The notes: generated from the sequence alone by a model not told the origin. A stretch of 32,000 bases of DNA from Pseudodesulfovibrio piezophilus C1TLV30 (GCF_000341895.1 NC_020409.1:1800001-1832000), one strand, 5' to 3'; positions 26,466 through 31,767 are shown, counted from the stretch's first letter. Translations and numbers: made by a program.

Positions 26466-27356
26466 ATGAAACTGAAATTGATCATGCCCCGTTTTCTCTT
26501 GTTCTGTATGCTCCTCCAGTTGCTGCCAGCAATGGGAAGAGCCGCACCCACGCCTCTGGAGGAATACCGGGAGCACGGTGTTACCATTGTCAGCAGCCCC
26601 GAATTTCAACCCATTTATTTTCGAAACAATGAAGGCAAACCCGTCGGGCTTCTCGTTGACTACTGGAAAAAATGGTCTGAAAAAACAGGCATTCCTGTCC
26701 GTTTCAAGGCTGCTCCCTGGAAAGAAACAATGGAAATGGTCATCAAAGGCCAGGCCGACATCCACGCCGGACTTGTGAATATGCCTGAACGACGTGCCCT
26801 GCTCGACTTCTCCGATCCCATCATGCCGGTCACCACCATGCTGATAGTCAAAGGGGAAGATAGTCACATCAGTAAAAAGCGCATCTATGCAGGGGGAACA
26901 GTCGGCGTTATCAGCAAATCACATCCTGTCACTTTTTTTCGAAACATCTATCCTTCAGTCAAACTCCACATTTTCGACAACCACAAGCAACTCATGGATG
27001 CTCTTGCCGAGGACAGGCTTGATGCCATTGTCATGGACTACCCCTCGTTCAGATTTCAAAATGCCAAGCGGGAAACACCAATTCAAGCAGGCATCAGTGA
27101 TATCCTGACCACTGTTCTTTTGCACGCAGGGGTGGGAAAAGGAAACGAAACCCTGCTCTGGATCATCAACGACGGCTTCTCAAAAATCAAGGACAGCGAA
27201 CGGGAGCGACTCAAAAGCAGATGGTTCATCACGGAAGTTCACGGCCATGACTGGCCGACCATTCTGGCCTGGGCAAGTGCGATTGCATGCGCCATGGGGA
27301 TCGCTCTGTTTTTCCTTTTTCAAATAAAGCCAGGCCATACGCTGCAAAAGAAATAA
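26466..27356 (+). CDS. Family-3 solute-binding domain protein with a C-terminal TM anchor
   Basis: Signal peptide followed by an SBP_bac_3-like body (PIYFRNNEGKPVGLLVDYW.., DAIVMDYP). A hydrophobic WPTILAWASAIACAMGIALFFLF sits 12 aa before the stop. Confidence 0.8.
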   Translation: MKLKLIMPRFLLFCMLLQLLPAMGRAAPTPLEEYREHGVTIVSSPEFQPIYFRNNEGKPVGLLVDYWKKWSEKTGIPVRFKAAPWKETMEMVIKGQADIHAGLVNMPERRALLDFSDPIMPVTTMLIVKGEDSHISKKRIYAGGTVGVISKSHPVTFFRNIYPSVKLHIFDNHKQLMDALAEDRLDAIVMDYPSFRFQNAKRETPIQAGISDILTTVLLHAGVGKGNETLLWIINDGFSKIKDSERERLKSRWFITEVHGHDWPTILAWASAIACAMGIALFFLFQIKPGHTLQKK

Positions 27357-27385
27357 ACGACATCAACGTCCCGCAGGAGAATCCC

Positions 27386-27781
27386 ATGGAACAAATCCAT
27401 ATCACAACCCATGTCCATGAAGAAATGATTGATATCACGGGGACAGTCAGAACTCTCCTCAAGACAGAAGGGTGGAAGGACGGAGCGCTGCTCCTGTACT
27501 GCCCACACACCACCGGAGCCATCACCGTCAATGAAGGCGCAGACCCTGACGTGGTCAGGGATATCACGGTGAACTTGCGAAAACTGATACCGCACCATGG
27601 CGATTATCTTCACGCTGAAGGCAATTCCGATGCCCACATCAAGTCGAGCCTGTTTGGCTGCGATCAACTCGTCATTGTCGAGGGCGGTAAAATCAGGCTT
27701 GGGACATGGCAAAAAATTTATTTCTGTGAATTTGACGGCCCACGAACTCGCTCTCTCTGGGTCCAATTCCTGCCGTCATGA
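27386..27781 (+). CDS. yjbQ: YjbQ/UPF0047-family protein
   Basis: ATG at 27386 with AGGAGA at 27375-27380. Contains CPHTTGAITVNEGADPDV, NSDAHIKSSLFG, LGTWQKIYFCEFDGPR. Confidence 0.85.
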   Translation: MEQIHITTHVHEEMIDITGTVRTLLKTEGWKDGALLLYCPHTTGAITVNEGADPDVVRDITVNLRKLIPHHGDYLHAEGNSDAHIKSSLFGCDQLVIVEGGKIRLGTWQKIYFCEFDGPRTRSLWVQFLPS

Positions 27782-27783
27782 TC

Positions 27784-28698
27784 TCATGAAGCGGACGAAT
27801 CTGTCGGAAAGGTACGCCCTTGTCGGAAGTCCACGTATGATGTGTGTGCCGTGATACCGTTTTCCCTGAACTGCCGGATCAGATTGATAGCAATATCACT
27901 CTTGAGATTCCAGGCCTCTGCCGGGGAATCGGCCCAGGCCGCCACCCAGCAGACCACACTCTCCTTATCCATGCGCATCACCCAGAACTGAGGCGGCTCC
28001 TGCTCATTGTGATGCTCACTTTCGCGTGCAACCCGAATGGCGATCTCACTGACTTCATCCAAATCAGCTTCGTAGGACACGGAAAATTCGAGATAAGCCC
28101 ACAGCAAAGTATCGTTGAGCGTCAGATTGATGAATTCCTTGTTCAACATGCGGCTGTTCGGGATGACATACCGTTTCCAATCCCATGTCTTGATCTTGGT
28201 ATGAGTAATGGAAATATCCTCGACCGTGCCGTACTGCGAATCCATCATCAGGGTATCACCAACCCGAAGCTGTTTTGAAAAACTGATAACGATGCCGGAG
28301 ATCATGTTTTCCACCAGGGGACGGGCCGCAATACCAATGACGGCCGTGGACACTGCGATGACAATGGAGAGCAGTGTGCTGGGCAGACGCCCGATAAAAG
28401 GAAGGATCAGAGCCAGAATCCACACCACGATAATACTGATAATCAGGGTTCTTCTGATAATGGTGAAGCGGGATTTAACTCCCTTGATCATCTGGCGCTG
28501 TTCCTGGCGCTCTTCCTTGTCGCTCAACACCTCGGTCGGCATGGCAGCGGTGGTTTCCGGCTCTCTGACCAAGGCGCTGATACGGGAGACCCGGCTGTCC
28601 TTGAACGAAGTGACACGAGAATGAAGCCAAAAATAAACGATAATGGCGACAAGGGTGACACCACCAAGATACCCGATGAGATTCAAATCAGCAAACAT
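27784..28698 (-). CDS. MscS-family mechanosensitive channel
   Basis: Three TM segments. The pore-helix/beta-domain junction AARPLVENMISGIVISFSKQLRVGDTLMM..GTVEDISITHTKI is typical of MscS. Confidence 0.9.
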   Translation of the reverse strand: MFADLNLIGYLGGVTLVAIIVYFWLHSRVTSFKDSRVSRISALVREPETTAAMPTEVLSDKEERQEQRQMIKGVKSRFTIIRRTLIISIIVVWILALILPFIGRLPSTLLSIVIAVSTAVIGIAARPLVENMISGIVISFSKQLRVGDTLMMDSQYGTVEDISITHTKIKTWDWKRYVIPNSRMLNKEFINLTLNDTLLWAYLEFSVSYEADLDEVSEIAIRVARESEHHNEQEPPQFWVMRMDKESVVCWVAAWADSPAEAWNLKSDIAINLIRQFRENGITAHTSYVDFRQGRTFPTDSSAS

Positions 28699-28799: not shown

Positions 28800-29699
28800 C
28801 TATTCCATCTTGACGAGGATTTCCTTTAGCAGATTCTCAAGCACCCCGGCCCGATGATAGACATCAGATGGGAATTTCCCTCGAACCCAATGAATCTTCC
28901 TCGGCGACCTCGCCCCCATGGTATGCCCATGCAGGAAGTCAAGCTCCGAAACCAATAACGACGCGATATCATACACATCACTTGGGACGATGGTATCGCT
29001 TCTTTTCGTCCAACTCCTCAATTTGAGCATGGACAGACCCCGTTTCTGGCTGATTTCGAAAATCAAAGAATAGGCCTTGATCAAGCGTTTATAGACATCA
29101 ACCGGCCTTTTCCCCAGCGGAACATCTGTTGGCGGGGGTGGTGGAGCCTTGTTCTCCAGAGTTCCCAAAATGGAATCCGCATAATCCACGGCCACGGTCA
29201 CCTGTCGGAACACGTCCGATGGTGAAAATTTCTGATCCAACATCAGGTTGACCTGTCGATTGATATGCACCACCAACTGAAAAACATCCGTTGGCGTCCG
29301 GGTGGAATCCACATCCGGGATATTGGTACTAAAGGGAAAACTCAGATGAGATTCGATACTATTGACCATTTCCCGCACATCATTGATCAGCATATAGACA
29401 TTCTCGGGCAGAATCAGTCCTTCGGGCGGCGTTGGCAGGGGCCGGCTATGCAGGGTCAATTCAAAATTGAGCCGGTTCACTTTTTCAAAAAGCGTCATGG
29501 CCTGAAAATACACCTCATGCGGCGAGACATTCTCTACCTGGGGTTCTTCCCTTTCCACCACCGGTCGCCCCATGGCCCATCGCAAGTGCTCAATTTCCTG
29601 CCCCACGGCGGAAACAAGCCGATAGACATCCGCCGAACTCTCCCCGGCCGCCAAGGCTGGAGGAGAAACCGTGCACAGACAGAGCAGAGCAAGCGTCAC
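28800..29699 (-). CDS. Secreted repeat protein of unknown function (eight PxDV[YF] units)
   Basis: 299-aa ORF with a GTG start. The hydrophobic N-terminus ends ALAA/GE. The repeat structure is described in the findings. No family recognised. Confidence 0.75.
   Translation of the reverse strand: MTLALLCLCTVSPPALAAGESSADVYRLVSAVGQEIEHLRWAMGRPVVEREEPQVENVSPHEVYFQAMTLFEKVNRLNFELTLHSRPLPTPPEGLILPENVYMLINDVREMVNSIESHLSFPFSTNIPDVDSTRTPTDVFQLVVHINRQVNLMLDQKFSPSDVFRQVTVAVDYADSILGTLENKAPPPPPTDVPLGKRPVDVYKRLIKAYSLIFEISQKRGLSMLKLRSWTKRSDTIVPSDVYDIASLLVSELDFLHGHTMGARSPRKIHWVRGKFPSDVYHRAGVLENLLKEILVKME
28803..29639 (-). repeat. Eight protein-level repeats [ST]PxDV[YF]-x(17-20) amphipathic helix plus a variable linker
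   Basis: The V-[YF] dipeptide occurs at residues 25/26, 63/64, 101/102, 139/140, 163/164, 202/203, 242/243 and 280/281, giving spacings of 38, 38, 38, 24, 39, 40 and 38 aa. Confidence 0.85.
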
Positions 29700-29936: not shown

Positions 29937-30119
29937 TTAGACCGGAGGGATGGGAGGAAGCTGCCACGGCGATTCCCGTTCTTTTTCCTGCTCGCGCTTT
30001 TCGCAATGAATGCAAACCCAACAATCACGAGGTGTAAAGTGGCACCGCAAGCTGTTTTGATAACGATGATATGTTTTTTCACCACAATATTTACAGTATC
30101 TATATTTGAGAATACTCAT
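29937..30119 (-). CDS. Speculative 60-aa Cys-rich zinc-ribbon-like small protein
   Basis: Internal ATG (30117-30119) of the 252-aa track ORF, lying entirely in the truA-downstream gap. Translation MSILKYRYCKYCGEKTYHRYQNSLRCHFTPRDCWVCIHCEKREQEKERESPWQLPPIPPV has CxxC - N20 - CxxCxxC. A weak AAGGG lies 6 nt upstream. Codons are AT-rich. Confidence 0.35.
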   Translation of the reverse strand: MSILKYRYCKYCGEKTYHRYQNSLRCHFTPRDCWVCIHCEKREQEKERESPWQLPPIPPV

Positions 30120-30204: not shown

Positions 30205-30957
30205 TTATTTTTCCGAAGAATAAAGGACCGAGGCAAGTGACAACCCCTGTGGCGGTGCTGTGGCTGGAGCTGCCATGCGATTTCTTCCCTTGAGCAGCCC
30301 TCGCACTTCTTGAGGAGTAATCCTGCCCCGCCCGCATGCCACAAGACAGCCCACAATATTGCGCACCATTTGCTTGAGAAACCCGTTTGCCTCGAACCGC
30401 CAGACTGTTTCATGTTCGGACAAACCGGTACGGAAGGAAATATCGGACACGGTCCGCACTGTAGACTTGACCGGGGTTCCCACATTTTGGAATGCGGCAA
30501 AATCATGTTCACCCAGCAGAGCATCGGCTCCGGCAAGCATGAGAGAATAATCGACCGAGCCGCACGCCCAGACAAACCTGCGTCGCTGCGGAAGACAGAA
30601 CTCCCGCGTATGCCAAAGGACATATTCGTAAATTTTTCCGGTAGCCGAATAACGGGCATGAAACATCTCGGGAACCCGTGCGCTCTCAAGGACACGAATA
30701 TCCGTTGGAAGCATGGAGTTCAAAGCGCGTTGCCAGGGAATATCCGCGCGTTCTGGGGGACAGTCGAAATGGCAGACCTGCCCCATGGCATGGACACCGG
30801 AATCGGTTCGCCCCGAGCCATGGACTCGTGGGGAATGGCCCAGGATGCGGCCAAGCGCCTTCTCCAAATCGCCTTGGACAGTCCTGTCGTGCGGTTGGAG
30901 TTGCCATCCTGAAAAATCGGTGCCGTCATAGGCAAGGGTCAGTCGAATACGGGTCAA
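30205..30957 (-). CDS. truA: tRNA pseudouridine(38-40) synthase
   Basis: TTG start. N-terminus (M)TRIRLTLAYDGTDFSGWQLQ and catalytic GRTDSGVHA. Confidence 0.95.
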   Translation of the reverse strand: MTRIRLTLAYDGTDFSGWQLQPHDRTVQGDLEKALGRILGHSPRVHGSGRTDSGVHAMGQVCHFDCPPERADIPWQRALNSMLPTDIRVLESARVPEMFHARYSATGKIYEYVLWHTREFCLPQRRRFVWACGSVDYSLMLAGADALLGEHDFAAFQNVGTPVKSTVRTVSDISFRTGLSEHETVWRFEANGFLKQMVRNIVGCLVACGRGRITPQEVRGLLKGRNRMAAPATAPPQGLSLASVLYSSEK

Positions 30958-31044: not shown

Positions 31045-31767
31045 TCACTTCCGTGCCGCGCGTGCTTTCTTCACCCTCAGGTTCAAAAATTCCACAAACA
31101 GGGAAAATCCCATGGCGAAGTAGATGTAGCCGCGATCGATGTGCTTATGCAACCCTTCGGCCATGAGAAAAATCCCCACCAGCAGGAGGAAGGAAAACGC
31201 GAGCATTTGCACCGTGGGATGATCGGAAACAAATGCACTCACCGATCCGGCAAAGAGCAGCATGACCAACACAGCCACCACAATGGCTGAGACCATGACG
31301 CCAAGGTGCTGGGCCATCCCCACAGCCGTGATGACCGAATCCAGGGAGAAGACAAGATCAAGCAGCATGATCTGAGCAATGGCACTGAGAAAGGAATATT
31401 GTGACCGGACATGCCCGTCCTTGGCTCCGGACTCCTCCATTGTATCGTGAATCTCGTGGGTTGCCTTGGCAAGCAGGAACACCCCGCCAATCAACAGCAC
31501 AAGGTCCCGACCAGACACGATATGCCCGAAGACTGTGAACAACGGTGCCGTCAGCCCCATGATAGCGGAAATGGCAAGCAACAGGGCAATACGGGTCACC
31601 ATGGCCAGGCCGATTCCCAGGCGTCTTGCCATGGCTCGCGACGCTTCTGGCAGTTTGTTGGTGACCACCACGACAAAGACGATATTGTCTATGCCGAGGA
31701 CGATCTCCAGCCCGACCAGGGTGATCAGCGCGATAAGATTCTCCAGGGTCAACAGTCCTTCAAACAT
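31045..31767 (-). CDS. TerC-family integral membrane protein
   Basis: 240 aa with a GGAGAA ribosome-binding site. LEIVLGIDNIVF and LSLDSVITAVG-type repeated motifs of TerC/YjbE-like proteins. Confidence 0.85.
   Translation of the reverse strand: MFEGLLTLENLIALITLVGLEIVLGIDNIVFVVVVTNKLPEASRAMARRLGIGLAMVTRIALLLAISAIMGLTAPLFTVFGHIVSGRDLVLLIGGVFLLAKATHEIHDTMEESGAKDGHVRSQYSFLSAIAQIMLLDLVFSLDSVITAVGMAQHLGVMVSAIVVAVLVMLLFAGSVSAFVSDHPTVQMLAFSFLLLVGIFLMAEGLHKHIDRGYIYFAMGFSLFVEFLNLRVKKARAARK

Follow-up and report, generated by a model that had tools for sequence, protein, structure and literature searches.

The window analysed here, a 32,000-nucleotide (nt) stretch of the genome of Pseudodesulfovibrio piezophilus C1TLV30 (GCF_000341895.1, NC_020409.1:1800001-1832000), contains on its minus strand, at 28800..29699 (counted from the first nucleotide of the window), a gene for a protein made of eight helical units. 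In the family to which this protein belongs, the gene mostly occurs beside, or fused to, the gene of a membrane sensor with a periplasmic domain of the TorS/HBM-like type, and this pairing is observed with high confidence at the level of the family. We give an even chance to the reading in which the family constitutes the extracytoplasmic partner of such sensors and the window copy comes from a clade of Desulfovibrionaceae without the adjacent sensor gene. Physical docking of the two proteins and a role of the family in signalling are suggested with moderate confidence; for the orphan copy in the window, confidence in any assigned role is low.

The family is large and widely spread. Searches return 131 homologues at an expectation value (E) ≤1e-3, none of them named, and a profile search among 1.84 billion representative proteins yields 1449 clusters at 50% identity (E ≤1e-3), of which 560 are found at E ≤1e-30. 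The open reading frame (ORF) of the window matches the hidden Markov model (HMM) of the family alignment (A1; the sensor-domain alignment is A3) with an E of 9.9e-121, and its eight motifs line up with the family consensus. Nearly all of the 150 listed clusters have a length of 300-350 amino acids (aa), and the identity between phyla is about 40%. A genome scan gives 143 loci, in Planctomycetota, Verrucomicrobiota, Latescibacterota, Gammaproteobacteria, Nitrospinota, Nitrospirota, Myxococcota, SAR324, Acidobacteriota and Campylobacteraceae, among others (at least 10 phyla), with several paralogues per genome in some genomes. Scans with Pfam (2025 copy) and NCBIfam (June 2026) recognise no family in the window protein or in five sensor-paired homologues; with Pfam hmmscan at E ≤1, the window protein gives only a sub-threshold RH1 match (17.8 bits, with a cutoff of 24). 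A precomputed Pfam domain is present in only one of 120 listed homologues, a receiver-domain fusion. We did not find a description of this family in the literature, searched by accession number and for accessory proteins of the CHASE3 or four-helix-bundle kind. An earlier note on this stretch, made from the DNA sequence, took the repeat to be old and maintained, and the number of clusters together with the divergence between phyla bears this out; it had also considered that homologues might be lacking, and they are abundant.

In two distant homologues, the next gene encodes a HAMP transducer and overlaps the eight-helix gene by 4 nt. In 61 of 80 genome loci, the eight-helix gene is followed on its own strand by an ORF of 180 aa or more whose start lies between -35 and +150 nt from the stop codon of the eight-helix gene. 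According to Pfam, signalling domains dominate in these 61 downstream proteins: HAMP (39), HATPase_c (30), HisKA (24), PAS (about 21) and Response_reg (15). Less frequent are GGDEF (6), EAL (4), MCPsignal (2) and Guanylate_cyc (2), and SpoIIE (PP2C) is also present among the transducers. Whatever the output, the layout is shared: a first transmembrane segment, a helical periplasmic domain of about 280 aa, a second transmembrane segment and, usually, HAMP at about residue 345. Conserved motifs particular to the periplasmic domain are SLAxLRGWxxLGD, QWWIEDVAxTPGNxPA and WNVAQ.

Loci were classified with an HMM of this periplasmic domain, and 75 loci are testable. The sensor gene is directly downstream in 53 of them, fused with the eight-helix gene into one ORF in three, and directly upstream in one, so that the sensor is adjacent or fused in 57 of 75; no sensor is found in 18. 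The two genes overlap by 4 nt in many pairs. Organisms in culture with a sensor-paired copy include Roseiconus nitratireducens, Kolteria novifilia and Cognaticolwellia sediminilitoris. The reciprocal test was seeded with the sensor motif QWW[IT]E[DE][VI]A only, taken from eight closer sequences (in the alignment of 45 sensor sequences no stretch is conserved enough for seeding). In all 24 metagenome loci so retrieved, the eight-helix gene adjoins the sensor gene (23 upstream, one downstream). A C-terminal P-x-W-L tail, absent in the window protein, was considered as a marker of pairing and rejected, several tail-less members being paired.

Fusions occur in the reverse order as well. In six fusion clusters (P0126, P0127, P0138 and P0262-P0264), the order is Ser/Thr kinase, transmembrane segment, sensor domain, transmembrane segment, signal-like transmembrane segment and eight-helix domain, which places the sensor domain and the eight-helix domain both outside the membrane. 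In another protein, P0052 (518 aa), a cytoplasmic receiver domain is followed by one transmembrane segment and then by the eight-helix domain, a layout in which a single protein would link a phosphorylation site with the periplasmic domain. We disregarded P0035, a partner-then-sensor fusion found in a dinoflagellate assembly, as a likely frameshift or contaminant; its topology would place the sensor domain in the cytoplasm.

The sensor domain shows weak sequence matches to TorS and to the four-helix-bundle domains of methyl-accepting chemotaxis proteins (MCPs). An AlphaFold model of a natural sensor-partner fusion has confidently predicted domains, with a mean predicted local distance difference test score (pLDDT) of 90.2, and a predicted template modelling score (pTM) of 0.54. 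With its sensor part, Foldseek retrieves TorS (3i9y, and 3o1i, the TorS-TorT complex), the HBM domain of McpS (2yfb) and PilJ, with a probability of 1.00 and target-normalised template modelling scores (TM-scores) of 0.4-0.62.

The window protein, its leader, its two modules and its eight helices are as follows (the modules from the comparison of half versus half with hhalign).
28800..29699, minus strand: coding sequence of the eight-unit protein, 299 aa, GTG start, TAG stop (CCH48986.1 / WP_015415030.1)
29649..29699, minus strand: signal-peptide-like leader, aa 1-17 (MTLALLCLCTVSPPALA), read from the sequence, predicted cut after A-L-A
29226..29642, minus strand: module 1, units and helices 1-4, aa 20-158
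28803..29225, minus strand: module 2, units and helices 5-8, aa 159-299
29574..29636, minus strand: helix 1, aa 22-42, begins at S-A-D-V-Y
29454..29522, minus strand: helix 2, aa 60-82, begins at P-H-E-V-Y; Q66, A67, K73 and E80 each at least 91% conserved
29346..29408, minus strand: helix 3, aa 98-118, begins at P-E-N-V-Y
29241..29294, minus strand: helix 4, aa 136-153, begins at P-T-D-V-F; conserved N-R-Q-x-N (aa 147-151)
29166..29222, minus strand: helix 5, aa 160-178, begins at P-S-D-V-F, six residues past helix 4
29043..29105, minus strand: helix 6, aa 199-219, begins at P-V-D-V-Y; A209 where 74% of the family have Cys
28926..28985, minus strand: helix 7, aa 239-258, begins at P-S-D-V-Y; the most conserved unit (PSDVYDIASLLVSEL); D244 coupled to K73
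28806..28871, minus strand: helix 8, aa 277-298, begins at P-S-D-V-Y; H282 and L290 stand where 94% and 86% of the family have Gln

The product is 100% identical to the P. piezophilus hypothetical protein CCH48986.1 (WP_015415030.1, UniProt M1WK50). On inspection, the leader (MTLALLCLCTVSPPALA, followed by A) ends in an A-x-A site and has no charged n-region; cleavage is predicted after A-L-A. An N-terminal hydrophobic stretch is present in 213 of 243 homologues, and a lipobox-like pattern in six of the 243 only. The window protein is most likely exported by Sec and periplasmic, as the leader and the topology of the fusions suggest, in agreement with the secreted protein of the earlier note.

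The repeat first described from the DNA holds in its main lines. Seven P-x-[DEN]-V-[YF] motifs are found at aa 60, 98, 136, 160, 199, 239 and 277, with S-A-D-V-Y at aa 22, and the spacing is 38-38-38-24-39-40-38, identical to that given in the earlier note. Among 100,000 shuffles of the mature sequence, none gives more than two matches to [PA]-x-[DEN]-V-[YF]. The profiles of the units are similar and in register (hhalign probability of 85-96% for most pairs), unit 2 being the most divergent of the eight. The proposed duplication of a four-unit module is supported because the two halves (aa 20-158 and aa 158-299) align with an hhalign probability of 97.2% and an E of 2.8e-11 over 134 columns. 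The copies are divergent in the DNA, as had been noted: only matches of 24-29 nt at 72-75% identity are found, over the codons of the motif. Two other descriptions apply in part. Some linkers are rich in Pro (4 of 15 residues, 6 of 20 residues), but linker 220-238 has none in 19 residues; the helices are moderately amphipathic (hydrophobic moment of 0.25-0.47), and three of the eight exceed shuffled sequences (p<0.025).

The AlphaFold2 model of the window protein, obtained with an alignment of 48 sequences, is confident (pLDDT 92.7, pTM 0.87). It contains eight helices of about 20 residues, one per unit and each starting exactly at its motif, and is all-helical save for two strands of three to four residues. 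We did not observe any structural neighbour with Foldseek in the PDB and BFVD (best E 0.5-0.9, TM-score <0.2). Queries of the PDB by sequence, whether with the protein alone or with the profile of the family, return nothing below an E of 0.26. That the earlier note did not recognise the repeat as TPR, Sel1, HEAT or any named family is therefore borne out by sequence and by fold. In proteins, [S/T]-P-x-[D/E] is a helix capping box, with [S/T] as N-cap and Pro at N1. The V-[Y/F] pair that follows the capping box would pack into the core, and the motif would therefore be mainly structural.

The arrangement of the helices was followed through coevolution, with a mean-field direct-coupling analysis (DCA) of 327 non-identical family sequences (effective number of sequences 267). 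Between helices H1 and H3, 15 coupled pairs lie along a positive slope (r=+0.90), with a mean offset of 76.5 for an offset of 76 between the starts of the helices. The other couplings within a half have positive slopes as well (H2-H3 +0.89, H3-H4 +0.94, H6-H7 +0.93 and H5-H7 +0.78). Between the halves, the slopes are negative (H2-H7 r=-0.91, with i+j = 314.7 ± 1.7; H4-H7 r=-0.99). Positive slopes in register imply that the helices run parallel within each half, and negative slopes between halves that the modules pack antiparallel. Similarity between repeats could mimic such couplings; this artefact is argued against because units of different halves are as alike in sequence as units of one half (3 and 6, 4 and 8, and 6 and 8 score 95-96%) and yet show almost no coupling in register.

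Most units are trailed by a linker of 15-20 residues, long enough to return along a 30-Å helix; with parallel helices within a module, these long linkers would thus be return straps. The six-residue loop between H4 and H5 would reverse the direction between the halves. The conserved K73 and D244 are coupled in the DCA, and this coupling would span the module interface. Coevolution, then, points to a fold of two all-parallel four-helix modules packed antiparallel.

The polar residues conserved in the family are Q66, K73, E80, N147-N151, D244, Q282 and Q290. Together with Cys209, they could mark a binding site or an interface, judged by conservation. Cys209, on helix 6 at the position of window aa 209 (nt 29073-29075), is a single Cys that 74% of the family members share. 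A conserved single Cys is unusual for a periplasmic protein. A second Cys occurs at position 78 in 24% of the members, mostly alongside Cys209.

One input with many outputs, translational coupling, reciprocal co-occurrence and consistent fusions make up the classic signature of a two-part sensor. The closest precedent in function is the docking of a periplasmic protein on the periplasmic domain of a sensor. Stimulation of this kind is known for chemoreceptors, sensor kinases, GGDEF/EAL proteins and Ser/Thr kinases, and one of the targets is TorS, a sensor with a two-module four-helix bundle that works with TorT (PMC8050422). In the proposed mechanism, the periplasmic domain of the sensor would be a two-module four-helix bundle of the TorS/HBM type, on which the eight-helix partner would dock, with or without a ligand. 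Docking would set the output behind HAMP, be it a histidine kinase, GGDEF/EAL, a PP2C phosphatase, an adenylate cyclase or an MCP; in the reversed fusion form, the output would be the Ser/Thr kinase. In the clade of P. piezophilus, the neighbouring sensor gene would have been lost, and four residues conserved elsewhere in the family are replaced. With the neighbouring sensor lost and the residues changed, the window copy would either act in trans, on a sensor whose gene lies at another place in the genome, or keep a sensor-independent part of the job, such as the binding of a periplasmic ligand or partner.

Several observations weigh against this reading. In the 32-kb window, no ORF matches the sensor HMM, nor is the sensor found within 6 kb in six other Desulfovibrionaceae loci. 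The 18 testable loci without a sensor extend beyond this clade: the eight-helix gene of Nitrospirota has no sensor beside it, and what precedes it, in a second type of context, is a conserved secreted protein, about 200 aa long and without Pfam match (L040 1673-2275, L053 5117-5731, L064 5274-5840, L075 5154-5783, L081 5125-5763 and L083 3444-4073). The pTM of 0.54 of the fusion model means that the relative placement of the domains is not confident, and the model is silent on docking. The support for the parallel topology comes from coevolution and not from the coordinates of the model. The four residues replaced in the window copy imply that it may no longer work as the paired members do.

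Several genomes have more than one copy. In the Nitrospirota loci L075, L080, L082 and L083, a second, convergent eight-helix paralogue lies downstream. One Nitrospinales metagenome-assembled genome has four copies (L020, L026, L027 and L032), two of them sensor-paired and two orphans, and Kolteria novifilia has two (L024 and L058), both sensor-paired. Multiple copies per genome indicate that the module has been duplicated and rewired within genomes.

The replaced residues are A209, R273, H282 and L290 in the window protein, for C209, G273, Q282 and Q290 in the family (conserved at 74-94%). Replacement of C209 (A, T or V instead) and of G273 (R or H) is seen in Desulfovibrionaceae only; in some of them, the window copy included, Q282 has also become H or N, and Q290 has become L. 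Nitrospirota orphans retain all four. The rest of the conserved core is kept in the window copy; in view of the substitutions, its function may have shifted.

It is possible, if doubtful, that the Desulfovibrionaceae protein is a free-standing periplasmic factor without a part in signalling (ligand-binding, scaffold or chaperone-like) that has kept the fold and shed the sensor. The absence of an adjacent sensor in the window, L003/L004, L005 and L085-L088 favours such a factor, as do the clade-specific changes at C209, G273, Q282 and Q290 and the variety of the genes that follow (MscS, flagellins, multihaem cytochromes, dCache MCP). The eight-helix gene sits after truA in the five Desulfovibrionaceae loci with a readable upstream side, and since it is kept in this place it is still under selection. 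However, most of the conserved polar residues are retained (Q66, K73, E80, N147-N151 and D244), and a sensor could be encoded elsewhere in the P. piezophilus genome.

An inhibitor of the sensor that responds to stress, in the manner of CpxP or ExoR, would differ from the extracytoplasmic partner proposed above only in what is sensed: the sensor would be held off until the inhibitor is titrated or degraded under envelope stress, and no small ligand would be delivered to it. The evidence from pairing is identical for the two. CpxP and ExoR are all-helical, as is the eight-helix protein, and the single conserved Cys (74%) could serve as a redox or covalent switch. We nevertheless regard this inhibitor as unlikely, as neither LTXXQ (CpxP/Spy) nor Sel1 is matched in Pfam.

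The third explanation is drawn from the neighbourhood of the gene in the window, which comprises the following features.
26466-27356, plus strand: SBP_bac_3
27287-27781, plus strand: UPF0047/YjbQ
27784..28698, minus strand: MscS-family channel, 101 nt downstream of the eight-helix gene
30205-30957, minus strand: truA
31045-31767, minus strand: TerC

In Desulfovibrionaceae, the frame is truA, the eight-helix gene, a variable insert and then, where the downstream side is readable, YjbQ and SBP_bac_3. After the eight-helix gene come the following.
Window and L085: MscS-family channel
L086: flagellins
L003/L004 and L087: multihaem cytochrome plus cytochrome b
L088: dCache MCP

It is very improbable that the eight-helix protein assists the MscS-family channel from the periplasm. 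The two genes share a strand, little DNA separates them and no convincing terminator lies in between, and the arrangement is the same in the closest relative (L085). But MscS follows only in these two loci, and the link is incidental because the insert differs between Desulfovibrionaceae genomes (four other contexts); the association with MscS that the earlier note proposed to check thus falls away. In other phyla, MscS is outside the 25 most frequent Pfam families of the 61 downstream proteins. Further, by analogy with the topology of the MscS of E. coli, this channel of three transmembrane segments should offer very little to a periplasmic accessory. As for an ORF that is not a real gene, or a repeat that is a chance or compositional pattern, the two points in its favour (a GTG start without Shine-Dalgarno sequence, and no expression data found) count for practically nothing, since the 1449 homologous clusters in many phyla with conserved length and motifs, the 100,000 shuffles with never more than two motifs and the confident structure prediction rule it out.

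Before the annotated GTG start (29699), we did not find a Shine-Dalgarno sequence. On the minus strand, GAGAGGG is present at 29737-29731, 7 nt ahead of an in-frame ATT (29723-29721) that lies eight codons upstream of the GTG. Translation may in fact start at this rare ATT, or initiation may proceed without a Shine-Dalgarno sequence. Expression data for CCH48986.1 were not found in the literature, and the protein is absent from the main text of the D. piezophilus genome/proteome paper.

The eight-helix gene and truA are 505 nt apart, and a Cys-rich ORF of 60 aa (MSILKYRYCKYCGEKTYHRYQNSLRCHFTPRDCWVCIHCEKREQ...) with a zinc-ribbon-like CxxC pattern occurs between them at 29937-30119 (minus strand). 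ORFs 65% identical to it are found at the same place in L085 (4660-4830) and L003/L004 (5691-5852), where they are uncalled. It is probably a missed small gene.

What membrane sensors detect is a long-standing gap in the understanding of bacterial signal transduction. The TorS/HBM-like sensor and its dedicated eight-helix protein form a widespread two-gene input module, unannotated in Pfam, NCBIfam and solved structures, and their pairing gives a testable hypothesis in which the helical protein docks on the sensor and carries the signal. The predicted fold is without analogue among solved structures (Foldseek, PDB), and an all-parallel helical repeat, if true, would be of interest to structural biologists and protein designers. 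For P. piezophilus the gain is more modest: a hypothetical protein can be assigned to a family, with a location and a probable ancestry, and the tempting connection to the MscS channel gene is removed.

A periplasmic partner with a membrane sensor is a known type of system, and the protein itself appears to be built on a new fold. A joint claim goes further, and we place it a little short of an even chance: a new fold (two all-parallel four-helix modules, S/T-P-x-D capping boxes and extended return straps) that would also define a new class of periplasmic co-receptors for TorS/HBM-like sensors, with at least six kinds of output in at least 10 phyla, and free-standing in Desulfovibrionaceae and Nitrospirota.

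As in TorT-TorS, MBP-Tar, LuxP-LuxQ and GlnH-GlnX-PknG, an exported periplasmic protein is encoded beside a membrane sensor. According to Foldseek, the periplasmic domain of the sensors paired with this family is structurally closest to the sensor domain of TorS and to the HBM domain. Unlike TorT, LuxP, MBP and GlnH, which are two-lobed alpha/beta solute-binding proteins (SBPs), the eight-helix protein is all-helical; it has no match to SBP families in Pfam and NCBIfam and no structural neighbour. The outputs cover a range common to pairs of periplasmic protein and sensor (histidine kinase, chemoreceptor, GGDEF/EAL and Ser/Thr kinase; PMC8050422).

Among known partners, CpxP/Spy and ExoR are helical periplasmic proteins whose target is the periplasmic domain of a sensor kinase, and ExoR is built from repeats. 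The eight-helix protein differs from them in the absence of the LTXXQ motif from its sequence and of LTXXQ and Sel1 matches in Pfam, in its size and in its type of repeat, and its predicted topology is parallel rather than that of a hairpin. The sensors differ as well, being TorS/HBM-like, unlike CpxA or ExoS.

With TPR, Sel1, HEAT and Armadillo proteins, the eight-helix protein shares tandem helical units of about 24-40 residues, in divergent, old and maintained copies. We did not observe a Pfam match to their clans at E ≤1, and none is among the top Foldseek matches (TM-score <0.2). In those families, the repeat is an antiparallel pair of helices with short turns, whereas each unit of the eight-helix protein consists of one helix and a long strap. 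Unlike in alpha-solenoids, consecutive helices are coupled in parallel and in register, as seen in coevolution and not in coordinates.

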